64,000 bases of DNA from an uncultured Gammaproteobacteria bacterium (GCA_963748215.1 CAVVHS010000009.1:320001-384000), one strand, 5' to 3'. Shown: positions 1,387 to 62,902, counted from the stretch's first letter. A program made the numbers and translations. Notes: a model not told the origin generated them from the sequence alone.

Positions 1387-2841
1387 ATGAGTCTGGACTT
1401 CAACACGCTGGATTTGCTGCGTCAGACTCATCCGGCGTGGCGGCTGCTAAATTCACCCCACGCACCACTGGTTGTGAGTTTTCTGCATCGGGCCTTCATC
1501 GATCCCAACGAGAGGGTGATCGCACAGGCAGACCTGGTGGAAAAACTGGAAGATGAGCTGTTTACACTGCGTGAACAGTTGGGTGATGAGATTTTTCCAA
1601 AGGCTGCACTGGAGTATCTGAATGACTGGGCCGGTAATGACAAGGGCTGGTTGCGAAAATTCTACCGCCAGGGTTCGGATGAGCCGTATTTTGACCTGAC
1701 GCCGGCCACAGAAAAGGCCGTCGCCTGGCTTGGTACCCTGACCGAGCGAAACTTTATCGGAACCGAGTCGCGTCTGTTGACGCTGTTCGAATTGCTCAAG
1801 CAGATCAGTACAGGCAGCGAGACCGATCCGCTAGTACGAATTGCCGAGCTGCAGAGGCGCCGTGATGAAATCGATGCCGAGAATGCTCGTGTGCTCGAGG
1901 GTGATATACCACTGCTGGACAACACGGCGCTGAAGGACCGCTTTCAGCAGTTCATGTTGATTTCGAGGGAATTACTCTCTGATTTTCGTCAGGTGGAGCA
2001 TAATTTCCGGTTGCTGGACCGGGGGGTGCGAGAACGGATCGCACTGTGGGAAGGAGGCAAGGGAGAATTGCTGGAGGAAATCCTGGGTGAGCGCGACACC
2101 ATTGCTGATTCTGATCAGGGACGCAGCTTTCGTGCATTCTGGGACTTCCTGATGTCCAGCGCACGACAGGAAGAATTCAGTCATTTGCTGGATCGGGTAT
2201 TGGCCCTGCCGGCGGTTGCCGAACTCAATCCGGATGCCCGTACCCGGCACGCACACTATGATTGGCTTGAGGCCGGTGAACATACCCAACGAACCGTGGC
2301 CCAACTTTCGCAACAGCTGCGCCGTTTTCTCGACGATCAGGCCTGGCTGGAGAATCGTCGCATTATGGAGATACTGAGAAGCATCGAAAGCAAGGCGCTG
2401 AGCGTGCGCGCGAGACCGCCGGATGGTGAGGTTGCAGTGATTCCGGCTATCGGGGTTGATATCGAACTGCCGATGGAACGACCGCTGTATTCACCGGCGC
2501 TGAAGATGCGAATCGCCGATCTCATCCTTGATGCAGAAGAGGCGGAGGTGGATGCCGCAGTGCTTTTTTCCCAGGTCGCTATCGACAAGGCGAAACTGTC
2601 GACGCATATCCGTCGTGCCCTGCAAGAAGTTCCGCAAATTACTCTGCAAGAACTGTGTGCACGATGGCCTCTCCAGCACGGATTGGCTGAACTGGTCGCC
2701 TATCTCGAGTTGTCGTGTGAAGATTTCAGATACACGATTGATGAGGCAGAGCAGGACAGTATCGTTTGGTGGGGCACGAGTCGTGATGGAGTGAAACAAA
2801 AGAAGCAGGCACAGCTTCCGCGGGTGATATTCGTTCGATGA
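1387..2841 (+). CDS. jetA: Wadjet JetA (DUF3375)
   Basis: 484 aa, HPAWRLL...PL, FIGTESRL, SDQGRSFRAFWDFL motifs; first of four overlapping genes. Confidence 0.9.
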   Translation: MSLDFNTLDLLRQTHPAWRLLNSPHAPLVVSFLHRAFIDPNERVIAQADLVEKLEDELFTLREQLGDEIFPKAALEYLNDWAGNDKGWLRKFYRQGSDEPYFDLTPATEKAVAWLGTLTERNFIGTESRLLTLFELLKQISTGSETDPLVRIAELQRRRDEIDAENARVLEGDIPLLDNTALKDRFQQFMLISRELLSDFRQVEHNFRLLDRGVRERIALWEGGKGELLEEILGERDTIADSDQGRSFRAFWDFLMSSARQEEFSHLLDRVLALPAVAELNPDARTRHAHYDWLEAGEHTQRTVAQLSQQLRRFLDDQAWLENRRIMEILRSIESKALSVRARPPDGEVAVIPAIGVDIELPMERPLYSPALKMRIADLILDAEEAEVDAAVLFSQVAIDKAKLSTHIRRALQEVPQITLQELCARWPLQHGLAELVAYLELSCEDFRYTIDEAEQDSIVWWGTSRDGVKQKKQAQLPRVIFVR

Positions 2842-3503
2842 ACAGCGAACAGGAAACCGGGATAACAGGTGCGGCACAGGGCCTGTCATCTCTGGTCATT
2901 CCCTTGCTCAAGGGCGTGATCTATCGCGATGAAGCAACCGCGCGTGGCACCGGCCAATGGAACGCTCTGCTCGATCTGCAGGCACGAGTGCGCGATTATG
3001 TATCCGTGATAGGTTTGGAACTGGTGCTGGACGAGGCCGAAGGTTATGCCTTCCTGCGTGCGCGTGGTCATGAGGATGAAGAGAGTGCGAAAAAATTGCC
3101 ACGCCTGGTGGCACGCCGGTCACTCTCGTTTCCGGTCAGCCTGTTGCTGGCCCTGTTGCGCAAGAAGCTGGCTGAGTTCGATGCAGGTGGTGGCCAGGAC
3201 GTGGAGGCGGGCAGGTTGGTGATGTCACGTGATGACATTGTCGAACTGGTGCGCGTTTTCCTGCCCGACACCAGCAACGAAGTCCGTTTGATGGATCGTG
3301 TGGATGGCGATATCAACAAGGTTGTCGAGCTGGGTTTCCTGCGCCGTATGCAGCCGCAGCCGGGGCAGCAGGCCCCGGAATTCGAGGTGCGCCGCATCCT
3401 GAAGTCCTTCGTCGATGCGCAATGGCTGGCTGAATTCGACGCACGTTTGGCTGCCTATCAGGCGCAACTTAGCGAGCAGGAACCCGATAAACGTGATGTC
3501 TGA
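2838..3503 (+). CDS. jetB: Wadjet JetB (DUF4194)
   Basis: 221 aa, [36 protein letters not shown]; ATGA overlap with jetA. Confidence 0.9.
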
Positions 3504-6500
3504 ATCTCCGCATACACCCGGACTGGATTTTGTTGCCGACGATACCCTGACGGGCTTTCGGCTGCAGCGGCTGGAGGTCTATAACTGGGGTACCTTTGAT
3601 AGACGAGTCTGGATCTTGCAAGCCGACGGCAACAATGCGCTGCTGACGGGTGATATTGGATCTGGCAAATCGACTCTGGTCGATGCCGTCACGACCCTGC
3701 TGGTGCCAGCGCACCGTGTGGCCTACAACAAAGCCGCCGGCGCCGACAGCAGAGAGCGGACGCTCAAGTCCTACGTCCTGGGTTATTACAAGACGGAGCG
3801 TAGTGAAGTCAGTGCCGCGGCAAAGCCCGTTGCCCTGCGTGATAACAGCAACTATTCAGTTATCCTCGGTGTGTTTCATAACGCCGGGTACGATCAGACA
3901 GTGACCCTGGCGCAGGTATTCTGGATCAAAGACGCGCAGGGGCAGCCTGCGCGTTTTTTTGTGGGTGCCGAGCGGGGTCTTGCCATCGCGAGCGACTTTG
4001 CCGGTTTCGGTACAGAGATAGTCTCGTTACGCAAGCGCTTGCGTGGAGAGGATGTTGAAGTGTTCGACAGCTTCCCACCCTACGGTGCCTGGTTCCGGAG
4101 ACGTTTCGGAATCGAAAACGAGCAGGCAATGGAGCTGTTTCATCAGACCGTTTCCATGAAATCCGTGGGCAATCTTACCGAGTTTGTCCGCAACCATATG
4201 CTCGAGCCATTTGATGTGATGCCGCGCATCGCGGCTCTTATCGCACACTTCGATGACCTGAATCGTGCTCACGAGGCGGTTCTCAAGGCCAAGCGACAGA
4301 TTGAGTTGTTGATGCCACTGGTGGCTGATTGCGATCGCCACCTGGAAGTGGCCAGTTCCACAGAAGATCTGCGCGGTTGCCGCGAGGCCTTGCGCATGTA
4401 TTTTGCAGTACTCAAGCTCGAACTCCTGGAGCATAGGATTACCGGACTGGGGGAGGAATGGGCGCGTCAGAACTTGCGCATCCAGGACCTCACGGAACAT
4501 CGGGATGCGCAACGTGCCCGGATTGTTGAGTTTAAACAAAGTATTGCCGACAATGGTGGCGACCGGCTGGAACGTCTCACGGAAGAGATGCGCGTCAAGG
4601 CGAGTGAGCGTGACGTTAGAAAGGCCAAAGCCGATCGCTACGCGGACCTGGTGCGAGCCGCCGGCGGGCATCCAGGTACGGATGCGGCTGCCTTCCAGGG
4701 ACAACACAAGGAATTCCAGCGTCAATTGGAGCTGTCCGCTGCGCGTGAGGCAGAACTGCAGAATGCACTGACCGAACAGACCGTGGAACTCCGTCAGTGC
4801 AAGCAGCAACATGACCAGCTCACGGCTGAGATCGACAGCCTGAAGGCCCGGCGCAGCAATATCCCTGCTGAACAGATCCGAATGCGCGACGCCCTGTGTG
4901 ATGCTCTGAATTTGTATACTGCTGACCTGTCGTTTGCCGGAGAGCTGCTGCAAGTGCGTGAGGATGAGCGGGACTGGGAGGGGGCTGCCGAGCGGTTGTT
5001 ACATAATTTCGGCCTGTCATTGCTGGTACCGGATGCCCATTACCAACGGGTCTCGGAGTGGGTGGATCGTACCCATCTGCGTGGCCGTCTGGTCTACTTC
5101 AGGGTGCGCGCTGGCATCCGTGGTGAGTTGCGGGCGCTGCACACTGATTCTCTGGTGCGCAAGCTTGCGATCAAGCCCGATACACCGTTTTACGAGTGGC
5201 TCGAAAGCGAGCTCGTGCGCCGTTTCGACGTTGCCTGCTGTGCAACCGGTGAGCAGTTCCGGCGTGAGACAAGGGGTATTACCCGGGCGGGCCAGATCAA
5301 GTCACCTGGCGAACGCCACGAAAAGGATGACCGACACCACATCAATGACCGCCGCCGTTATATATTGGGCTGGACCAATACCGGCAAGATTGCCGCCCTG
5401 GAGGCCGAACAGCGGCAACTGGAGATGCGGTTGGGCGAACTGGGGAGTCGCGTCGCGAAGGTGCAGTCCGGGCAGGCCGCCCTCAGCAAGCAGCGAGATC
5501 TGTTGCTGAAACTCGATGAATATCGCGATTACCGGGAGCTGGACTGGTGTTCTCTGGCCGCCGAGGTGGCGCGGCTTGAAGAGGAGAAACGGCAGCTGGA
5601 GAGTGCCTCTGACATGCTCAGGGAACTGACCGGCCAACTGAATGCGCTGGCACAATCATTAACTGCAACCGAGAAACAGCTGGAGGAGCGCCTGGCCGGG
5701 CGGGCCAGAACCGAGCAGAAACAGGAGGACGCCGCTGCCCTGCAGGTGCAGACCCGGACATTGCTTGCAGAACCGGTGGTTCAGGCCCATGAGGTTCGAT
5801 TCACGGCCTTGGATAAACTGCGTGCCGAGGCCCTGGGGGAGCATCGATTGACCGTGGAGTCCTGCGACAACCGCGAGCGTGACATGCGCGAATGGCTGCA
5901 GGCTCGAATCGACGCAGATGAATCACGTCTTAAACGGCTGGGTGAGAAGATTATTCGCACAATGACCGAATACAAGGAGGCCTTCCGGCTGGAAACGGCG
6001 GAGGTGGATGCCAGTATCGAGGCGGCACATGAGTACAGCGCAATGCTGGTTGCACTACAGGCTGATGATCTGCCGCGTTTCGAGGCGCGCTTCAAGGATC
6101 TGCTTAACGAGAACACCATCCGCGAGGTGGCCAACTTCCAGTCGCAACTCGCCCGCGAACGCGAGGAAATCAAGGAGCGCATCACGCGCATCAACGAATC
6201 GCTGGCGCAGATTGACTACAACCCGGCACGCTACATAAAAATCGAACCCCGGCCGAGTACAGATGCCGAGATTCGAGACTTCCAAAACGAGTTGCGCGCC
6301 TGTACCGAAGGTGCGCTAACCGGTTCCGAAGATGCGCAGTATTCAGAAGCCAAGTTTTTACAGGTCAAGCATATCATCGAGCGTTTTCGCGGGCGTGAGG
6401 GCCAGACTGAGTCTGATCGCCGCTGGACTGCCAAGGTGACTGATGTACGCAATGGCTTTACATTCGCTGCCAGCGAGCGCTGGCGCGAGGATGATAGCGA

Positions 6501-6873
6501 GCACGAACACTATTCCGACTCGGGCGGGAAGTCAGGTGGTCAGAAGGAGAAGCTCGCCTACACCATCCTGGCCGCCAGTCTGGCCTATCAATTTGGGCTG
6601 GAATGGGGAGCAGTGCGCTCGCGATCGTTCCGCTTCGTGGTGATTGATGAGGCATTCGGGCGTGGCTCGGATGAGTCCGCGCAATACGGCCTACGGCTGT
6701 TCGCGAAACTCAATCTGCAACTGTTGATCGTCACACCCCTGCAGAAAATCCACATCATAGAGCCCTTCGTTAACAGTGTCGGTTTTGTCCACAACGAGGA
6801 CGGCCGAGCCTCCATGCTACGCAATCTCACCATCGAGGAGTACCGGGAGGAGAGAGCGAGGGCTGTCCAGTGA
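3496..6873 (+). CDS. jetC: Wadjet JetC, SMC-like ATPase
   Basis: NWGTF, Walker [10 protein letters not shown], long coiled coil, signature KSGGQ, Walker B VVIDEAF; ATG 3496 (overlapping jetB end) preferred over 3415. Confidence 0.92.
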
Positions 6874-8078
6874 ACTGGACCGGTCCCCGTGAACTGCATG
6901 TGCAATTACTGCGCTGTTGGAATCGCGGTGATCTGCTGACCGGAATGGTTTCCGGTGAATCAATATTCCCCCAACGATTGACATTGAAAGCACCCACATC
7001 CGCACAGATGACGGATGACTTCGACAAGGTGCGCGACTGGATCGCCGCCTTACGCTCACTGCCACACTACCGGATCGAGATGCGCGAGGTGCGTCATCGG
7101 GTACTCGGCGCAAACGAGGTGCCGGCGGCAGTCTGGGTGGATACTCTCGACGATGCCCTGGCCATATTGGGTAAATCCCGTGAGGCCAAACGTTTCGCGA
7201 GTATGGTCGAGCGTACTCGACTGCGGCAACCTCTGCTGCTCGAATGGCTTGCCTGCAAGCCGCTCAAGGCGCACGAGTTGGCTGAGGTCTGGGATCGGCT
7301 CCTGGATGTAACCGAGTGGGTCCAGCAGCACCCTCGTCCGGGCATATACCTGCGACAGATTGATATCCCCGGAGCCCATAGCAAATTCATCGAGGCACAC
7401 AGGGGCGTTCTGCTCCAGTGGCTGGACCGGCTCTTGCCGCCTGAGGCTGTCAATAACAGTGCCACTGGCGTCTCCGGGTTTGCCAGCCGGTACGGATTTC
7501 GTGACAAGTCCCAGCGTATTCGTCTGCGTGCGCTAGATCCCGAGCATGCACTATTACCGCGGTCGGTGAATGCGGACATTACTCTGGATGCTGAAAGCTT
7601 TGACTCCCTGTCGCCTGCAGTTTCACGGGTATTTATCACGGAGAATGAGATCAATTATCTGGCTTTCCCGCCGGTGCCAGACAGCCTGCTGATATTCGGC
7701 GCCGGTTACGGTTTTGAGGTGCTGGCACAAGCTGCATGGTTGGCTAGCTGCCAGGTGTATTACTGGGGTGACATTGATACACACGGTTTCGCGATACTGG
7801 ATCAGCTGCGCGCATATCTGCCCCATGCGCATTCCCTTTTAATGGACCGTGATACGCTACTGGCCTTCAAGGCCCAATGTGGCAGGGAGGAAAAACAGAC
7901 GCTTCGGGACTTGTCTCGCCTGAATACTGAGGAGCGCGCACTGTACGATGACCTGAGAGACAACCGTCTGGGCAAGAATTTGCGCCTGGAGCAGGAACGC
8001 ATCGGATTCGGCTGGGTCGAGAATGCACTGGCTTTATTGCTGTCTCGCAAGCAGATTTCCAGCATGGAAAATGGTTGA
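6870..8078 (+). CDS. jetD: Wadjet JetD, Toprim nuclease (DUF3322+DUF2220)
   Basis: [44 protein letters not shown]; catalytic E and DxD intact. Confidence 0.92.
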
Positions 8079-8150
8079 GGGTACAGGAGGAAGAGCTGGC
8101 CCTGCGCGGACCTTCCAGCATTTTGTCTGTATTGCTGTCGCCATTCCTCT

Positions 8151-8560
8151 GTGGGAGTTTTGCGGGACTCGGTTATGCATCGTCCTGCATCGTGGTGCAC
8201 AGATCGCAACGGGCGCTACGGTAAGTTGTTGAATAAAAAGGCTGAAAAATCGCCTTTCTGTACTTTTAATCTGATGGTCGTTGGTTCGAGCCGAGGACGA
8301 CGCAGTCGGCCGAGACAACAGCGTCGCATCAGCGACGCTGACCCCGAAGGGGCGAGGGCGCAGCCCGAGTAATCCAACACGACCCACCATTAAATCAATC
8401 ACTTAATTCCGATTTTTCATCCCGGTAAAAATTGATTGCGGGGATTTTGCGGGGATTAACCGCAAATCTTCTCCATTAACATAATCTCGCCCGTAGTAAA
8501 TTCAATTGCTTGCGCGTCAGCAACCGATTCGAACTGTCGTTTCCTGGACCAAAAAATCCG
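8151..8560 (+). repeat. att-like repeat copy 1 (tRNA-Lys 3' half with 82-nt T-loop insert)
   Basis: Arm-like GGGAGTTTTGCGGGA; phased TGCA repeats; IHF-like TAAGTTGTTGAA 8222-8233; tRNA-Lys fragment 8262-8289; insert 8290-8371; ATCCAACACGACCCACCA 8372-8389; IHF consensus AATCAATCACTTA 8393-8405; arm GGGGATTTTGCGGGGAT 8440-8456. Confidence 0.9.
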
Positions 8561-8586
8561 CTGCTCGTAATCGTGTAAGGGTTCAT

Positions 8587-13184: not shown

Positions 13185-13307
13185 CGCTAAATCGGGGCTA
13201 CGCGGATGCCGGTTAGCCGATCTTCCCGATGCTGGCCTGCGCGATCTGATATTGGCGTTAAATGGCCAGATAAGCTCCCGCGAACAGCCTAAAGACTAGG
13301 AAGAATA

Positions 13308-14133
13308 GGGGACAGACCACGTTTTTCAATCTGATTTGGCGGGTCTTCCCGGGTTTCTACGTGTAACACGTCGTTGCAGCATGTGGGAGATCTCAGACTT
13401 AAAGCGTTCATTACCCAGAGCATAGTTACCATGCGAAGCAGTCCGGATCTCGGCAAGCAGATCGGGGTCTATAGCTGTGTGAAACAGGCCACGGTAATTG
13501 GCAAGACGCGTTTCTTCACTCCCTCCGAGTGCCAGGTATTCTGCGTGTGGCGTCAGGCCGTCGTGCTGTGCGCCTTGACCGTTAATCCTGTAACTTGACC
13601 ACTGATATTCTGCCGGGTGCTCTACCATGACTGCGCGAACCGGGTTCAATTCGATATATCGGTAACAGGCAAGTACATAGTGACTTTCCTGAACCAGACA
13701 GGAGCGAAAACGGCCTTCCCAAAGCGTTCCGCTGCGCTGGTAGCGACGGTTACTGTATTGGACGTAACGCTGACCAAGCTGTTTCATGAGCAGAGCGGCG
13801 CTATCACGCGCTGCTGGGGTAAGGAGCAGGTGTACATGATTCGTCATCAGGCACCAGGCATGTACACTGCAACGATATCTAGCGCCCTGCTCAGCCAGGG
13901 TATCAAGGTAATACTGGTAATCGCAGTTGTCGTAGAAGCAGGGGCTGCGATTATTGCCGCGCTGGATGATATGCCAGGGAATGCCAGGAATGACCAGGCG
14001 GGCACGGCGTGGCATAAGAATAACCTTGTTCAATTTAGAGTAAGAGTTGAATGGTGAATGCATGAATACGGCGGTTATGTAGTGAATGTGCGTGAAGGTG
14101 CGTCAGTAATTGACGAAAACGTGGTCTGTCCCC
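13308..14133 (-). mobile_element. RAYT/Y1 transposase element with perfect 18-bp inverted ends
   Basis: GGGGACAGACCACGTTTT (13308-13325) and AAAACGTGGTCTGTCCCC (14116-14133) bracket the transposase; the left repeat abuts its stop codon. Confidence 0.8.
13326..14015 (-). CDS. REP-associated tyrosine transposase (Y1_Tnp, HUH)
   Basis: MPRRAR...HIIQRGNNR, WCLMTNHVHLL (HUH), GTLWEGRF, YIELNPVRA, YQWSSY; start at MPRR preferred over 14063. Confidence 0.9.
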   Translation of the reverse strand: MPRRARLVIPGIPWHIIQRGNNRSPCFYDNCDYQYYLDTLAEQGARYRCSVHAWCLMTNHVHLLLTPAARDSAALLMKQLGQRYVQYSNRRYQRSGTLWEGRFRSCLVQESHYVLACYRYIELNPVRAVMVEHPAEYQWSSYRINGQGAQHDGLTPHAEYLALGGSEETRLANYRGLFHTAIDPDLLAEIRTASHGNYALGNERFKSEISHMLQRRVTRRNPGRPAKSD

Positions 14134-14220
14134 CCCCCTTTTTCTTTTTTCAGAGACCAGTTGTTAGAGATCTAAACAGGTGCTATTGTTAGACCAGTTA
14201 ATGGCCCATTTGGAACTGGT

Positions 14221-14812: not shown

Positions 14813-14977
14813 ATCGTCGGGTCTTTATGACGCACTGGCACAGAACGCGTGTGTGTGAAGAATTGTTGCTCGTGCGGCTATGAGCAGTTTGAATTGTATT
14901 GGCTCTCTAGTAACCCGGGGTGGTTCATACAGTGCATTGTTGCTCTGGTCTTGGGCCAGATATAGGCAAACGACCCT

Positions 14978-15393
14978 GTGGGGATTTTGCGGGGATCAGT
15001 TTTGCATTGTTATGCATCGTGGTGCACAGTGTGCAACGGGCGCCACGGTAAGCTGTTGAGATTAAAAGCGTAAAAATGCTTTTTCTGTCCTTTTAATTCG
15101 ATGGTCGTTGGTTCGAGCCGTGGACGACGCAGTCGGCCGAGACAACAGCGTCTCATAGGCGACGCTGACCCCGAAGGGGCGAGGGCGCAGCCCGAGTAAT
15201 CCAACACGACCCACCATTAAAACAGTCACTTCCCTCTGATTTTTCATCCCGGTAAAAATGGATTGTGGGGATTTTGCGGGGATTAACTGCAATTTTTTCT
15301 CGTTGGGTCAATTTCGCCTGTAACCAATTCAATTGGTTGCGTATCAGTAGTCGACTCGAACAGCTATTTTCTGGACCAAAAATCCGATGCTCG
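14978..15393 (+). repeat. att-like repeat copy 2
   Basis: Same layout as copy 1: tRNA-Lys fragment 15090-15116, insert 15117-15198, ATCCAACACGACCCACCA 15199-15216, arm repeats on both sides. Confidence 0.9.
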
Positions 15394-15999
15394 ATCGCAT
15401 GCAGATAATCTGAAGTGGTTGCAAAACAGCAGTTATGATTCTTTAGGTACATCCGTGACAAGCTTGGTAGGGATCAAGATCTGCGGAATTGGTTTTAAAA
15501 GATTCAACACTCAATGATTAATCTCCAACCATGTGGGCGTGAAATATTGAGGCAGCATTGAATACCGATATACGGTGATTACAAATAGACTTTTGTTGCC
15601 ACATAAATAGCAGCATACAGGATGCAGTACTTGATGGCGCATATCTGTCTTATGCCGACATCCTCGTTAGGATAATGGTAAACAGGGACAGTATTCATAA
15701 GAATCAAAGGGATTCAATTATTGCGGACGATAGCTGCTTCAGGAGCAGGCTGTCGGCGACAATGGTCTTCGCGCCACAAGGCCCCAGGAGCTTGGCAATT
15801 ATGCTCAGTAGATGGCAAGGAGTATCAGCAGATCATTCATGGCGCAGCAGGGTAGGGAGTCTAGCCATCAGGGGCAAGTCTGTCCAAGTCGTCGATTTCA
15901 GCTGAAAATTATTAATTCAGCAGGGACAGGCGCATACACTGGCGCCGTTGTTGCCGCGTTGTCTTGACGGATCGACGCGATAGAATTGATCGAAAACTG

Positions 16000-40444: not shown

Positions 40445-40569
40445 ATCTCACGGTCGTGTCAGACGTTCAAGCCATAGTGCGAACCGCGCTCTCTATGCGG
40501 GCAGACTGCGTCCCGGGTGTTTATGGCGTATTCATAAGTATGCCGCCGATTGGAAAGGCAGAAATCCCT

Positions 40570-40815
40570 GCGGGGATTTTGCGGGACTCGGTTGTGCATT
40601 GTTATGCATCGTGGTGCACAGTGTGCAACGGGCGCCACGGTAAGTTATTGAAGTGAAAGGCTGAAAAATCGCCTTTCTGTCCATTTAATCCGATGGTCGT
40701 TGGTTCGAGCCGAGGACGACGCAGTCGGCCGAAACAACTGCGTCGCATCAGCGACGCTGACCCCGAAGGGGCGAGAGCGCAGCCCGAGTAATCCTTCACG
40801 ACCCACCCTTTAATC
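40570..40815 (+). repeat. att-like repeat copy 3 (no right arm; variant tRNA 3' end)
   Basis: Left arm, TGCA repeats, IHF-like box, GGTTCGA 40702-40708, insert 40709-40790, then ATCCTTCACGACCCACC 40791-40807. Confidence 0.88.
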
Positions 40816-42137: not shown

Positions 42138-42257
42138 CAGGATTGGTCAGCAGTGCAGGTTGCACCGTGTGTATTGCGAATTGCTGTTCAGGCGGCTTCG
42201 GCAGCTGGTAAAGACAGTGGCCATGAGATTTCCGACTGGTGGAAGCCGGAAATCCTT

Positions 42258-42594
42258 GCGGGACTTTTTGCGGGACTCGGTTATGCATCGTCCTGTCTCG
42301 TGGTGCAGAGTGTGCAACGGGCGCCACGGTAAGTTATTGAAGTGAAAGGCTGAAAAATCACCTTTCTGTCCTTTTAATCCGATAGTCGTTGGTTCGAGCC
42401 GAGGACGACGCAGTCGGCCGAGACAACAGCGTCGTATAGGCGACGCTGACCCCGAAGGGGCGAGGGCGTAGCCCGAGTAATCCAACACGACCCACCATTA
42501 AAGGGGATTCTGCGGGGATTAACCGCAAATTTTCCTCGTTGGTTAAATTCTGCCTGTAGAGAATTCTTGGTTGCGCACCAGTAACAGACTCGAA
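42258..42594 (+). repeat. att-like repeat copy 4 (about 50 bp deleted right of the core)
   Basis: GGTTCGA 42391-42397, insert 42398-42479, ATCCAACACGACCCACCA 42480-42497; the right arm follows almost immediately. Confidence 0.9.
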
Positions 42595-42692
42595 TCATGT
42601 CCTTCCCGAAAATACGTACTGCCTGATATTCTTGACCTTTTTCAGAGACGCTATCAATCTGGTGTCCGCTGTCATTGTTAGTATCCAGAATC

Positions 42693-55245: not shown

Positions 55246-55354
55246 AGGCGGCACTATTGATATCCTGTGTATGGCGAATTACTGCTTATGCAGCCACAGG
55301 CAGCTGATGAAGGCCTGGGCAAGGGATTTCCGGCAGAATCGACTGTTCACAGTT

Positions 55355-55765
55355 CGGGACTTTTACGGGACACAGTCCTGCACAACTATGCACCGTTATG
55401 CAATCGAGGCAACGGACGCCCCAAATTACCCGTATAAAAACAATCATATACATGCCAACTCTGTCACTCATAATGCTGGGGTCGGTGGTTCGAGCCGAGG
55501 AAGACGCAGTCGGCCGGGACAACCGCGTCGCATTAACGGACGCTGACCCCGAAGGGGCGAGGGCACAGCCCGAGTAATCCAACACGACCTACCATTAAAA
55601 CAACTAGTTACCTCTTGTATTTCTTCCCACAAAAATTGATTGTGGGGATTTTGCAGGGATTAACCGCATACTTTCTCGTTGGCTTGATTTCACCTGTAAT
55701 AAATTCAATTGGTTGCGAATCAGTAACCGACTCGAACTGTCGTTTCCTGGACAAAACATTCGATG
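55355..55765 (+). repeat. att-like repeat copy 5 (tRNA-Met-type left half, Lys-type right half)
   Basis: CGGGACTTTTACGGGAC arm; TCACTCATAATGCTGGGGTCGGTGGTTCGA 55464-55493 (CAT anticodon); 83-nt insert 55494-55576; ATCCAACACGACCTACCA 55577-55594; right arm as in copies 1 and 2. Confidence 0.88.
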
Positions 55766-56035
55766 CTTGTCGTCGAATGTCGCAGAGTGGCGAATTCGGA
55801 CATACGAAACTGATATCGGAACAACTTCGCTGCATTGTTCAGCCTATGGGGAAATTCCATTTCCTGGCGCCGCTATTTTCAGCGGCGAATTGCCGAGCGT
55901 TCAGGCCTCTGCTGTTCCACATCATGAGTCAGCAGTGAACGAATGACTGATTCAATCAGCCTCCCTCAGGGAATCGTAATTTTCGCCGATAATCAACCAA
56001 CTAGCTGAACAGGCGTTGCACGCGGCAGTGATGCA

Positions 56036-57521: not shown

Positions 57522-58343
57522 ATGGCCCGGTCGATGTACAGCCAGCACTGGTACCGGGTGGCGGACATCAGGCCTCGGCTGCGCGGACATATCAGCCTGC
57601 ACCGTCATTACTACCGTGGTAACCGTTGCTATCTCCTGCAGGATGAGGCCACCGGTGCATTTCATCGCTTCGGCCCCGAAGTCTACGAAATGATCGGCCA
57701 GATGGATGGCGTACGCACGGTCAACGAGATCTGGGAAGAGACACTCGACCGGCTTGGCGATGACGCGCCGGGCCAGGAAGAAACGATGCACCTGCTCGGA
57801 CAGCTGCATGCCGCTGATATCCTGCAGTGTGATCTGACGCCGGATGCGCTCGAGGTGTTTCACAGGCATCGTCACAAGCAGCGCCAGGACTGGAAGCAGC
57901 GCGTGCTGAATCCGATGTCGTTACGGCTGCCGTTGTGGGACCCGGACCGTTTCCTGTTACGCTGGCTGCCGTACCTGCGCCCGGTGTTCACCTGGGCCGG
58001 GCTGGCCGTGTGGCTGCTGGTCGTGGCCACGGGCGTGGTGCTGGCCGGCCTGCACTGGGAATCCATCACGGCAGACATCGTTGACCGGGTGCTGAATCCC
58101 TGGAACCTGGTCATCATGTTTTTCACCTATCCCTGCATCAAGCTGCTGCACGAGTTCGGGCATGCCTTTGCCACGCGCCTGTGGGGTGGAGAGGTGCACG
58201 AGATGGGCATCATGTTCCTGGTGCTCATGCCCATCCCCTATGTCGATGCGACCGCGTCGGCCGGCTTTCGGGAGAAGCACCGGCGCCTGGCGGTGAGTGC
58301 GGCGGGCATGATGGTCGAGCTGTTTCTCGCACCGCCGCGGTGA
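57522..58343 (+). pseudogene. Peptidase M50-family membrane metalloprotease, 3'-truncated
   Basis: PqqD-like N-terminus, LPLWDPDRFL, HEFGH zinc motif, GGEVHEMG.M, PYVD; breaks after AGMMVELFLA and runs into adhesin repeats. Confidence 0.8.
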
Positions 58344-61300
58344 TCAACGTGAATAATGCCCCAACCGGCAGCGTGACGATCGACAACATCACTCCTGCCG
58401 AGGGTGACACGCTCACCGCATCCAACACCCTGGCCGATGTGGACGGCCTCAGTGGTCCGGTCAGTTACCAGTGGTACCGTGACGGGCTGGCGATCGGCGG
58501 CGCGACAGGAACAACGTATACCACTACACAGGCCGACGTGGGCGCAGTGATTTCGGTGGCTGGCAGTTACACCGATGACCAGGGCACAGTCGAGAGCGTG
58601 AGCAGCGCGGGCACCGCCGCGGTCACCAACGTCAATAATGCCCCGACGGGTGCGGTGACGATCGACAACACCACGCCGGCCGAAGGCGATACGCTCACGG
58701 CATCAAACATCCTGGCCGATGTCGATGGACTTAGTGGCCCGATCAGCTACCAGTGGTACCGTGATGGCGTGTCGATCGGTGGGGCCACAGCCTCCACCTA
58801 CACGACGGTCCAGGCCGACGTCGGTGCAGTAATCACTGTAATAGCGAGCTATACCGACGACCAGGGTACGGCCGAGAGCGTGAGCAGCACCGGTACGTCA
58901 GCAGTCACCAACGTCAACAATGCCCCGACGGGTTCCGTCAATATCGGTGGTACGCCGACCGAGGACCAGATGCTCACGGCCTCGAACACCCTGGCGGATG
59001 TGGATGGTATGGGGCCGGTTTCGTACCAGTGGTACCGGGATGGTGTCGCCATCGTCGGCGCAACCGCGAGCACCTATATCCTCGGTGATGCCGATGTGGG
59101 TACGACGATTACGGTCGCGGCCAGCTACACCGACGGTCAGGGTACGAATGAGAGCGTGACCAGTGCCGGTGTGGGTCCGATCGCCAATGTTAATGACGTG
59201 CCGACCGGCAGCGTCACGATCGACAACACTACGCCGGCCGAGGGCGACACGCTGACGGCTGCCAACACCCTGGCCGATGTCGACGGCCTGAGCGGGGCGA
59301 TCAGTTACCAGTGGTATCGTGACGGTGTGGCGATCGGTGGGGCTGCCAATAGTACCTATACCACCGTACAGACGGATGTGGGTGCCGTAATCAGCGTGGT
59401 CGCCAGCTACACCGACGACCAGGGTACACCCGAGAGTGTCAGCAGTACGGGTACCGCGGCAGTCACCAACGTCAACAATACCCCGACGGGTTCCGTCAAC
59501 ATCGGCGGTACGCCGACCGAGGACCAGACGCTCACGGCCTCGAACACCCTGGCGGATGTGGACGGGATGGGGCCGGTCTCGTACCAGTGGTACCGGGATG
59601 GTGTCGCCATCGTCGGCGCGACCGGAAGCACCTATACCCTGGGTGATGCCGATGTCGGTACGACGATGACGGTCGCGGCCAGCTACACCGACGGGCAGGG
59701 TACGAGTGAGAGTGTGACCAGCGCCGGTGTGGGTCCGATTGCCAGCGTCAACGATGTACCAGCAGGCCAGCCGGTCATTACCGGTACGGTAGCCGAGGAC
59801 CAGGTGCTCACGGCAGACACCTCCGGCATCAGCGATGCGGACGGGCTGGGTACCTTTGGTTACCAGTGGTATCGCGATGGCATGGCCATCGGCGGTGCGA
59901 CGAACTCCACCTATACCCTGGGTGATGCCGATGTCGGCGCCACGATATCCGTCGAGATCAGTTACACCGACGGGCAGGGAACCAGTGAGGCGATTACCAG
60001 CGCCGGTGTGGGTCCGGTTGTGAACGTGAACGATGCACCGGCTGGGCTACCGGTTATTGCCGGCACACCTGTGGAAGATCAGATAATCACGGTTGATACA
60101 ACAGGCATCACTGATGCCGACGGCATCAGCGGTGCGTTCAGCTACCAGTGGTACCGCGATGGTGTCGCCATTGCCGGTGCAAATGGCGGGGGCTATATCC
60201 TTGGGGATGCGGATGTTGGCGCAATCATTACCGCTACCGTCAGCTACGTCGATGACCAGGGCGCCAGTGAGTCCGTTTCCAGTGCCGGTGTCGGCCCGAT
60301 TGCCAATGTCAATGATGCGCCGACCGGCAGCGTTTTTATCGACAACATGACACCGGCTGAGGGCGACATGCTCACCGCGTCAAACTTCCTCGTTGACGCC
60401 GATGGCCTGAGCGGTGCGATCAGTTACCAGTGGTACCGGGATGGCATCGCCATCGGCGGTGCAACAGCCTCCACCTACACCAGCGTGCAGGCAGATGTGG
60501 GCGCCATGATCAGCGTGGTGGCAAATTACACCGACGACCAGGGCACCAGCGAGAGTGTCAGCAGCGCCAGCACGGCGGCGGTCACCAACGTCAACAATGC
60601 CCCGACCGGCAGCGTCATCATCGATAACATGACACCGGCCGAAGGCGACACCTTGACCGCCAGCAACACCCTGGCGGATGTCGATGGCCTGAGTGGCCCA
60701 ATCGGTTACCAGTGGTATCGCGACGGGGTTGCCATCGGTGGAGCCACCGGCAGTGCCTATACCACCGTGCAGGCCGACGTCGGTGCGGTAATTACCGTCG
60801 TGGCGAGCTACACCGATGACCAGGGCACGGCCGAAAGCATAAGCAGCGCCGGGACCGCGGCGGTCACCAACGTCAACAATGCTCCGACCGGTGCGGTGAG
60901 CATCAGCGGCACACCGGCCGAGGATCAGACGCTTACGGCCTCGAACACGCTGGCGGATGTCGACGGGCTTGGAGCCATCAGCTACCAGTGGTACCGCGAT
61001 GGTATTGCCATTGCCGGTGCGACTGGAAGCGCCTATACCCTCGGTGACGCCGATGTAGGTGCCACGATAACGGTGGCCGCCAGCTATACCGACGGACAGG
61101 GTACAAATGAGAGTATGACCAGTAACGGAGTGGGTCCGGTGGTCAACGTGAACGATGCTCCAACGGGCAGTGTCACCATCGAAAACCCGACGCCGGCCGA
61201 GGGTGACATGCTGACGGCGAGCAACACCCTGGCAGACGCTGATGGCCTGAGCGGTGCGATCAGCTACCAATGGTACCGGGATGGCGTGGCCATTGCCGGT

Positions 61301-62902
61301 GCCACGGGATCGAATTACACCACAGTGCAGGGAGACGTCGGTAGCGTCATTACGGTGGTGGCAAGCTACACCGACGATCAGGGCACGGCCGAGAGTGTGA
61401 GCAGTACGGACACAGCGGCAGTCACCAACGTCAACAATGCCCCGACGGGTTCAGTGAGCATCAGCGGCACGCCGGCAGAAGACCAGGCGCTCACCGCCTC
61501 TAACACGCTGGCGGATGTGGATGGTATGGGACCGGTCTCCTATCAGTGGTATCGGGATGGTGTTGCCATTACCAGCGCGACCAGGTCCTTCTATACCCTG
61601 GGAGATGCTGATGTGGGCGCGATGATTACCGTCGCCACCAGCTATACCGACGGGCAGGGTACCAGTGAGAGCGTGACCAGTGCGGGCGTAGGTCCGGTTG
61701 CCAATGTCAATGATCTGCCAGGTGGCTTGCCGGCCATCACAGGCATGGCGCAGGAAGACCAGGTCCTGGTCGCCGACACATCCACCATCAGCGATGCTGA
61801 CGGTCTCGGAGCCTTCAGCTATCAGTGGTTGCGTGACGGATCAGCCATAGCCGGTGCCACCGGCAGTACCTATGCCCTGGACGATGCCGACGTCGGTAGC
61901 CAGATCAGTGTGACGACCAGTTACATCGATGCCAAGGGTACTGCAGAGAGCCTGACTTCAGCGCAGACCGCGCCGGTCGCGAATGTGAATGATATTCCGA
62001 CCGGTGCCGTGACGATCGATAACCTGATGCCGGGTGAGGGCGACACCATCAGCGTCAGTCATACGCTGGCGGATGCCGATGGTATCAGCGGCCCGATCAG
62101 TTATCAGTGGTACCGCGGTGGCGTCGCCATTGCCGGGGCAACCGGCATGACCTATACGACCACCCAGGCCGATGTCGGTACTGTCATTACCGTAGAGGCG
62201 AGTTACACCGATGATCAGGGTTTCGCCGAGAGCCAAAGCAGTGTGGGCGCGCTGGTTGCGGGTGTTTTTGTCGACCCCAGTGAAGATACAACTGATGAAA
62301 CAGTTGTGCCGCAAACAGAACCCCCTGTGGTTTTGCGTGACAGCATTGGCGCGACCCCGGTGGGAAATGAAGAGCAATCCGGTGTAATGAAGGAAATAAT
62401 TGCCATCCACGAAGTTGCAGCGGAAGGCGATACCGATTACCGGGTCGATCCGTATCAGTATCTGGACGATGCTGACCTTGAACTGGATGAAGTTCGGAAA
62501 GACAACGTTATAAAACATGCGGTGCGCAGTATTGTCCAGGCCGGGTATCAGATAACCGAGGAGATGCTGCAACTGTTTGATCTTGTACGTATCAAGATGA
62601 GTGAAGTGGACGATCAGCCGGCGAGTGGAGTTATCAAGTCTGTGGGTGGTCTCGCCCTGTCTGTGTCTGCGGGCGTTGTGAGCTGGGTGCTTCGCGGCGG
62701 TGCCCTTGCTGCGAGTATGCTGTCATCAGTCTCTGTGCTGAAAGGGTTTGATCCCTTGCCAGTCATGGACATGAATCCCAAGAAGGGTAACCGTCCCGGG
62801 CATGAAGATGATGCAGACAGTGATGTTGATAATATGTTCGAAGAGGCGGATCTGGAAGAGAAGGGAGAAGCTTCGCAGACAGCAGGGAAAGCGGATAAAT
62901 GA
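58330..62902 (+). CDS. Large repetitive surface protein/adhesin, 5'-truncated; 14 Ig-like repeats and a conserved hydrophobic C-terminus
   Basis: 14 units of ~92-94 aa (NVNNAPTG...YQWYRDG...YTDDQG), acidic linker, SVSAGVVSWVLRGGALAASMLSS...FDPLPV; no plausible start or signal. Confidence 0.85.

Follow-up and report, generated by a model that had tools for sequence, protein, structure and literature searches.

What are the 131 bases at positions 55464-55594, one junction in a chain of genomic islands, and how did they come to join a left half that reads as one tRNA to a right half that reads as another? The positions are those of the window, by which we mean the whole 64,000-nucleotide stretch studied here (C9:320001-384000), from the 3.5-Mb genome of an uncultured gammaproteobacterium assembled in nine contigs. 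A sequence-only reading of the window had proposed that the halves of several such junctions came from elements targeting different tRNAs, that they were exchanged in or at a shared insert, and that the insert acts as a common crossover hub that lets islands of different tRNA specificity concatenate.

Islands stacked behind tRNA-Lys(UUU)

The only tRNA-Lys(UUU) gene that ARAGORN finds in the whole genome (C9:310571-310646) lies 9.4 kb upstream of the window, and an array of about 98 kb extends downstream of it. Eight junction units, c0 to c7, were located by blastn between C9:317780 and C9:408789, all in direct orientation; c1 to c5 are copies 1 to 5 of the window, and c0 (C9:317780), c6 (C9:400530) and c7 (C9:408557) lie outside it on the same contig. 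A repeat search (families D4-D9) placed the window copies at about 8149, 14976, 40568, 42257 and 55353, and a MAFFT alignment sets them in a common register, as do repeat families D4-D6, while shuffles gave an expectation of zero chance matches to the 57-nt core pattern. Copy 1 (8149-8575, on the plus strand as are all five), delimited by repeats and alignment, consists of a type-A left arm, a Lys-type left tRNA half (8263-8289), the core (8290-8371), a right tRNA half (8372-8389) and a full right arm. The same layout is found in copy 2 (14976-15400; core 15117-15198, right half 15199-15216) and in copy 4 (42257-42600; core 42398-42479, right half 42480-42497), the right arm of the latter being without about 45 nt. 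By blastn, the right arm of copies 1, 2, 4 and 5 also adjoins the live tRNA-Lys gene directly.

The array has an intact target tRNA-Lys gene at one end with element DNA immediately after it, its elements are bounded by direct repeats of the tRNA 3' part, and each of the eight units begins at the anticodon loop. The cargo between units is accessory in nature and includes Wadjet JetABCD, AbiE, ParE, PIN, a large MscK-type channel, cation pumps and antiporters, an FKBP isomerase and APS reductase subunits, among others. The array is a series of old, decayed tRNA-targeting islands stacked behind tRNA-Lys(UUU), and each junction, judged from its layout, looks like an attP site, with a P-type left arm, a displaced tRNA 3' fragment, a tRNA tail and a P'-type right arm.

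Within the cargo of the window, an AbiEi/AbiEii pair occupies positions 3-1180, and a complete JetABCD-like Wadjet operon, which comprises DUF3375, DUF4194/MksE, an SMC-like ATPase and DUF3322 with JetD_C, makes up, at 1387-8078, the island that copy 1 closes. Beyond copy 5, the next island holds a gene for a 1573-aa protein of ~93-aa Ig-like repeats (58181-62902), which has a DNA periodicity of 279-282 bp (repeat families D1-D3) and is preceded by an HlyD-type gene. The FKBP block to the right of copy 3, considered as an ancestral chromosomal flank, gave only paralog-level matches of ~70% in 8 of 36 congeners.

A comparator for the array as a whole is provided by the tycheposons, which are described as having partial tRNA copies between adjacent elements and scattered degenerate remnants (bioRxiv 10.1101/2020.12.28.424599). 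The Lys array is similar to them in having an intact tRNA at one end, direct partial tRNA copies between cargo blocks, degenerate elements, and cargo of defence and niche genes, but it differs from them in holding no integrase in ~98 kb, in that every partial tRNA is split by the insert discussed below, and in having one junction with a tRNA-Met scar.

No tyrosine recombinase was found in the array or its flanks; the whole genome has five PF00589 matches, none of them in the array, and the same-locus islands examined in three congeners contain no integrase. The block of identity that the units share with the tRNA has its left end in the anticodon stem or loop, as it does at the tRNA-Met scars, and runs to CCA, which suggests that the integrase of this family crosses over there. 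In the class I tRNA att sites reportedly described by Williams in Nucleic Acids Res in 2002, a tyrosine integrase is said to cross over in the anticodon loop. The units resemble such sites in the extent of their identity block, and a further likeness is the presence of a decayed integrase 3' end that is convergent to tRNA-Arg(ACG) and overlaps an arm motif. This frameshifted 3' end (...GHKSGRITTHYSAAELENLIEAANRVCG; ...HDLKHTFGRRLRAAGVSYEDRQDLLGHKSGRITTHYSAAELENLIEAANRVCGENSRKSP) lies at C5:2201-2620, facing the tRNA-Arg(ACG) gene at c2666-2742, with the arm motif GGGACTTTTGCGGGA overlapping its last codons, and it stands alone as a clear trace of the integrase family responsible for these islands. 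Another decayed integrase trace lies at a tRNA-Met scar, and the Lys right arm bears a weak, uncertain likeness to the C5 integrase 3' end. Behind tRNA-Pro(ggg), at C6:890561-890250, lie an arm containing GTGCGGGACTTTTGCGGGAC and an apparent decayed integrase 3' end, and this locus would be another island site of the same family.

The array contains an 843-bp IS200-like element (Y1_Tnp, Pfam PF01797) on the minus strand at 13292-14134, and a second copy, 99.9% identical by megablast and tblastn, lies at C9:315959-316801. The element encodes a 245-aa Y1 transposase, with a homolog of 49% identity on C3, and each copy sits within one of the array's islands and adjoins a toxin-antitoxin gene (ParE or PIN). 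The idea that the junction units are IS200/IS605 miniature elements was set aside because the Y1 transposase belongs to this unrelated element, and an integron cassette array was likewise rejected, since no integrase lies beside the array and the units, as tRNA fragments with arms, do not resemble the imperfect palindromes of attC sites.

The insert as an RtT-family core

The insert is an RtT core (Rfam RF00391). RtT RNA, also called the rttR repeats, came to light with the tyrT operon of E. coli; we know of no accepted function or origin for it, and literature searches for RtT returned passing mentions only. The window copies score 35.8, 32.6, 31.3, 28.7 and 21.4 bits (c1 to c5), all below the curated gathering score of 45 bits. 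Across the Lys array the family matches 7 of the 8 units at 21-36 bits, the match to copy 5 covering 55447-55594 with an E-value of 0.097 in a 501-nt search. Because the units are partial tRNAs with sub-threshold RtT, ARAGORN reports no tRNA in the window and Rfam at the gathering threshold reports no match there.

The motifs GGUUCGAG, CGAGA.AAC, CCCGAAGGGGCGAG and CGAGUAAUCC are in register with the RtT model, and the order of parts in the units is that of RtT, with GGUUCGAG, the hairpins, CCCGAAGGGCGAG and CGAGUAAUCC followed by the T-stem 3' strand, the acceptor strand and CCA of the neighbouring tRNA. The Rfam consensus, GGUUCGAgucgAG...CGAgUaAUCC..CCACCA (printed as ...aAGGUuCGAgucgAG...CGAgUaAUCCuuCcCccaCCACCA), splits the T-loop after UUCGA and resumes with AUCC, and the split is therefore part of the design of the family and not a peculiarity of this locus. 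The units are split at the same place, all eight junction fragments carrying the 82-nt core exactly between TTCGA and ATCC of the T-loop.

The units also depart from typical RtT in several respects. They fall short of 45 bits and are without a leader that pairs with the tail, the leader position being taken by the tRNA left half and the island arm, and the outer-helix pairs of copy 5 were flagged as non-canonical. Their identity to tRNA reaches left to the anticodon loop, island arms flank them, and some of their halves come from different tRNAs or alleles. Their tails, which differ from tRNA-Lys(UUU) by 0-3 mismatches, lie 7-98 kb from the gene with cargo between.

Elsewhere in this genome the family trails tRNA genes and is sometimes found in tandem. 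RF00391 matches 25 places in the whole genome at E<=1, seven of which exceed the 45-bit cut-off (45.9-61.2 bits). Eighteen of the 25 lie outside the Lys array, and for 14 of these 18 a tRNA gene of the same strand lies no more than ~500 nt away, 13 of them being downstream of the gene and one upstream of tRNA-Gln(ttg). The downstream hosts are Glu-ttc (3 in tandem), Gln-ctg (2), Ser-tga, Ser-gct (2), Ser-gga, Arg-ccg, Ser-cga (2) and Gln-ttg (1), such that RtT stands behind at least eight other tRNA genes, usually with the first copy ~30-50 nt past the gene. The places at C6:836610, 879434, 883974 and 884160 have no tRNA gene nearby. A free-standing RtT(Lys) unit that could have served as a donor was found neither in this genome nor in the loci fetched from relatives; the core-only matches considered for this role belong to the Ser(gct), Arg(acg), Ser(tga) or Gln(ctg) loci or to a truncated Lys remnant.

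Cores also occur in longer tRNA copies. Upstream of tRNA-Gln(ttg), at C8:224874-225282 (L008), lies a near full-length tRNA-Gln copy that has an RtT core in its T-loop and has lost its acceptor 3' strand, and downstream of the same gene is a second RtT unit with an extra internal hairpin. A congener has, on the minus strand at about 130-381 of L026 (G003:C130), a pseudo-tRNA-Ser(GCT) close upstream of the real gene. Two RtT-type cores, 81 and 80 nt long and of different subtypes, interrupt it, one following GGCTGA in the D-loop and the other GGTTCGA in the T-loop. With both cores removed, this pseudo-tRNA is identical to the gene at 76 of 78 positions, its 3' acceptor strand being missing, and the same two-core arrangement is present in G019 (L025).

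Lys junctions of congeners were found both without the core (about 10 loci) and with it (6 loci), under both arm types, and the boundary of the core is always TTCGA|ATCC. Lys cores are 87-95% identical between genomes, and a Lys core and the Ser(tga) core of the same genome are ~76% identical; the Lys cores are thus closest to cores of the same locus in other species, which argues for inheritance within the locus rather than hopping between loci.

Mixed halves in copies 5 and 3

The flagged junction, copy 5, opens with a P-arm-like left arm at 55353-55466 that is of the tRNA-Met-island type and contains GGGACTTTTACGGGAC and TGCA-rich repeats. Its global identity is 77% to the arm of one tRNA-Met scar (C8:211835), 70% to that of another (C8:207207) and 55-60% to those of the other units of the Lys array (c0-c4, c6 and c7), where shuffles gave a mean of 48% and a maximum of 54%; by blastn, it aligns with C8:211949-211808 (84.6%) and C8:207320-207183 (78.6%). 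The left tRNA half, CTCATAATGCTGGGGTCGGTGGTTCGA (55467-55493), runs from the anticodon loop CTCATAA to the T-loop TTCGA and is Met-type through GGTGG. It has 1 mismatch in 27 positions to the elongator tRNA-Met(CAU) of this genome (C8 c221035-221111) and 7 in 27 to tRNA-Lys(UUU), and all seven differences from tRNA-Lys agree with tRNA-Met. The RtT-family core that follows (55494-55576, 83 nt, GC-rich) has hairpins P1-P4 between CGAG motifs, ends in CGAGTA, and is 88-91% identical to the cores of c0-c4. The right tRNA half, ATCCAACACGACCTACCA (55577-55594), which contains the 3' side of the T-loop, the T-stem strand CCAAC, the acceptor strand and CCA, is Lys-type, with 1 mismatch in 18 to tRNA-Lys, a C>T change, and 7 in 18 to tRNA-Met. 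The P'-arm-like right arm (55595-55770) has GGGGATTTTGCAGGGATTAACCGC followed by ~130 nt common to other units; it falls in repeat families D7 and D9 and matches the c0-c2 right arms at 75-77% identity.

The T-stem of this unit, GGTGG/CCAAC, contains one G.A mismatch. The Met-type left half under a divergent left arm, the Lys-type right half and right arm, and the mismatched T-stem, all of which the sequence-only reading had noted, are thus present in the sequence, and the mixed Met/Lys origin held when the tRNAs of the host were listed with ARAGORN and each half was assigned to its source. On these comparisons, copy 5 is apparently the remnant of a tRNA-Met scar spliced to a Lys-type RtT unit.

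The position of the joint can be narrowed considerably. The last Met-specific base of copy 5 is the second G of GGTGG (55485), and the first non-Met base is the G of TTCGA (55492), since copy 5 has TTCGAGC in place of the TTCAAGT of the tRNA-Met gene and scars. Both tRNA-Met scars on C8 have an intact tRNA-Met 3' half and no core; if the partner was such a core-less Met scar, the joint falls within the shared TGGTTC at 55486-55491. We infer that the Met/Lys joint is this 6-nt stretch, at the left edge of the core rather than within it. Neither this genome nor any of 36 congeners yielded a Met-type unit that carries a core, and in the congeners the matches to the Met-type arm all stop at the T-loop, with none continuing into a core. 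A pattern search for the reciprocal product, with a Lys-type left and a Met-type right half, returned nothing in 37 genomes.

Copy 3 (40568-40808) has a type-A left arm, a Lys-type left half with GTTGG (40682-40708), a core (40709-40790), a right half of different sequence, ATCCTTCACGACCCACCC (40791-40808), and no right arm, in agreement with the earlier description. That description also had the tail pairing with GAAGG, and such a tRNA does exist, since the CCTTC tail is the T-stem strand of an intact GAAGG...CCTTC allele of tRNA-Lys(UUU) that is carried by 18 of 36 congeners, and the AA>TT change in the tail reproduces exactly the T-stem of this majority allele. The GTTGG...CCAAC allele of this genome, for comparison, occurs as an intact gene in only one other congener. 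Copy 3 accordingly joins a left half of the local GTTGG allele to a right half of the genus-majority GAAGG/CCTTC allele, and the exchange took place somewhere within the core or at its border. The proposal that the two halves had different sources is supported for both copies, copy 5 combining tRNA-Met with tRNA-Lys and copy 3 two alleles of tRNA-Lys.

The halves are mismatched in three of the eight units, with T-stem mismatches in c3, c5 and c6; in c6, GTTG- faces CCAGC and half of hairpin P2 has been lost, and c6 and c7 show plain decay, with deletions and scattered substitutions. In the terminal unit c7 (C9:408680-408779; L012), compensated pairs are seen in both the T-stem, GCTGG/CCAGC, and hairpin P2, GCATCGC/GCGATGC. 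An intact tRNA-Lys allele with GCTGG/CCAGC was found in none of 54 genomes of the order, and the compensated T-stem hints at selection on pairing within the unit.

Exchange between units is also seen in c0 and c1, which differ by one base over ~185 nt that span the left half, core, tail and proximal right arm, whereas the left arm of c0 is of a second type, unlike that of c1, and their distal right arms are ~82% identical. The distal right arm of c0 is 96.9% identical over 320 nt to the sequence behind the live tRNA-Lys gene. The core is the most conserved part of the unit, at 88-100% identity among c0-c5 compared with 55-86% for the arms. Mosaic tracts of this kind support exchange at or in the insert, and to that extent the earlier placement of the exchange stands, but the joint of copy 5 lies at the edge of the core and not within it.

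Origin of the chimeras

By a small balance, we favor an origin of the chimeras in host recombination and gene conversion among repeated attP-like scars. The units are direct repeats whose core, tail and proximal right arm are the best conserved parts, and they would therefore exchange by host recombination or conversion. The family's integrase does not explain the chimeras, because their joints lie at the T-loop or core and not in the anticodon loop. The agent would be the host's own recombination machinery, not an enzyme dedicated to the task, and the succession of events given next is likewise our reconstruction. Copy 3 may have arisen when a GTTGG-type unit and one with the GAAGG/CCTTC allele recombined across the core, and c0 and c1 may share a recent conversion tract under different left arms. 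In copy 5, a tRNA-Met scar with no core would have been joined to an RtT unit of Lys type by short-homology or illegitimate recombination at TGGTTC, a sequence common to all T-arms. The fused form itself could have been produced if a deletion brought the T-arm of the displaced fragment up to the sequence, resembling a T-arm, with which a trailing RtT begins. At C6:884560 a left arm precedes an intact Arg(ACG) 3' half, after which come a terminator hairpin and two RtT(Arg) units, and at C6:836800 an arm of this kind leads into an Arg left half, core and tail that are fused at the T-loop, as is also seen in a congener. An unfused precursor for Lys was not found in this genome or in the fetched loci of relatives.

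Several observations weigh against host recombination. Only 6 nt are shared at the joint of copy 5, so homologous recombination cannot explain it and illegitimate joining is an assumption, and the arrival of a Met-type scar inside the Lys array is left unaccounted for. If crossover was in the anticodon loop, the displaced 3' halves were once part of a live tRNA and could not then have carried the core; the cores would thus have been gained after displacement, and their presence in all eight units would need repeated conversion or an active process, which is much to ask of chance conversion. Neither this genome nor the fetched loci hold a free-standing RtT(Lys) donor of the core. The precise D-loop and T-loop cores of the congener pseudo-tRNA-Ser are not explained by recombination with a trailing RtT, and the compensated T-stem of c7 has no matching intact allele in the 54 genomes. 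On a rival reading, the RtT core is, or was, a site-specific module, either a mobile or intron-like insertion in tRNA loops or a recombinase site, with the chimeras as its products; this corresponds to the crossover hub of the sequence-only reading. The exact TTCGA|ATCC position in every unit, its precise presence or absence in homologous congener junctions under both arm types, its occurrence in all eight units here and in the T-loop of the tRNA-Gln copy, the pseudo-tRNA-Ser that regains its 76 of 78 identities once two cores are removed, and the T-loop edge position of the copy 5 joint all fit that view, and yet we regard it as unlikely, though with an appreciable chance. No candidate enzyme adjoins the units and no integrase lies in the array, whose only transposase is that of the IS200-like element, which is present twice and has no evident connection with the units. 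The cores group by tRNA locus across species and not by genome, and those of the pseudo-tRNA-Ser are of different subtypes, so there is no sign of recent movement between loci, and the reciprocal product and a Met unit with a core are both missing from the genomes searched. A bolder form of the idea, in which RtT cores are precise ~80-nt insertions specific to tRNA loops (following TTCGA in the T-loop and, in a single congener, CTGA in the D-loop) and copy 5 is the outcome of their own joining reaction, strikes us as improbable, but the eight cores in eight units and the D-loop core of the pseudo-tRNA-Ser keep a loop-specific insertion module alive as a reading.

Another view is that the units are working RtT-type RNA genes carried on islands, with the mixed halves being variants under RNA selection. 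The conservation of the core above that of the arms is consistent with this, as is the compensated T-stem of c7 without a matching tRNA allele; hairpins P2 and P4 covary among 26 aligned units of this genome, with pairing kept through changes on both sides, and copy 1 folded as RNA beats 200 of 200 shuffles (z -3.6). Against it, the units have no Rfam leader helix and score below the cut-off, c6 is missing half of P2, the T-stems of c3, c5 and c6 are mismatched, and scans for promoters and terminators around c1 and c5 gave signals at chance level; nor does it explain the Met-type left arm of copy 5, and it too seems to us a poor prospect. Point decay of a single ancestral Lys-type unit, the case that the sequence-only reading had itself named as fatal to its proposal, can be given almost no credence as the source of all the differences. 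Decay is plain in c6 and c7, and the tail of copy 5 is one C>T change from tRNA-Lys, but decay would not have made all seven departures of the copy 5 left half from tRNA-Lys Met-like, set a 114-nt arm homologous to Met-locus arms beside it, left the right half with the opposite pattern of one mismatch to tRNA-Lys and seven to tRNA-Met, or turned AA into TT in copy 3 to give exactly an allele of half the congeners sampled. The crossover hub shares the low probability of the site-specific module: the insert is a known RtT core with no associated recombinase, a Lys-left/Met-right reciprocal was found in none of 37 genomes, and one Met/Lys chimera is insufficient to establish that islands of different tRNA specificity routinely concatenate through it.

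Returning to host recombination as the favored origin, RtT cores and stacked tRNA islands are each known, and what is found here is the RtT core within island junctions, together with one cross-tRNA chimera. One consequence of a core in every junction fragment is that excision at the anticodon loop would rebuild a split, dead tRNA-Lys, and the islands may in this way be locked in. With its core inside att-like junctions, an orphan RNA family becomes connected to the way in which tRNA-linked islands grow and are reshuffled, and the paired core-bearing and core-less junctions, with the cross-tRNA chimeras, provide material for deciding whether RtT is a passenger, a substrate or a mobile module. 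If the core is only a passenger, the locus is a tidy case of the mosaic evolution of island scars; if the cores are indeed insertions, they would have given all of the junctions a portable block of homology.
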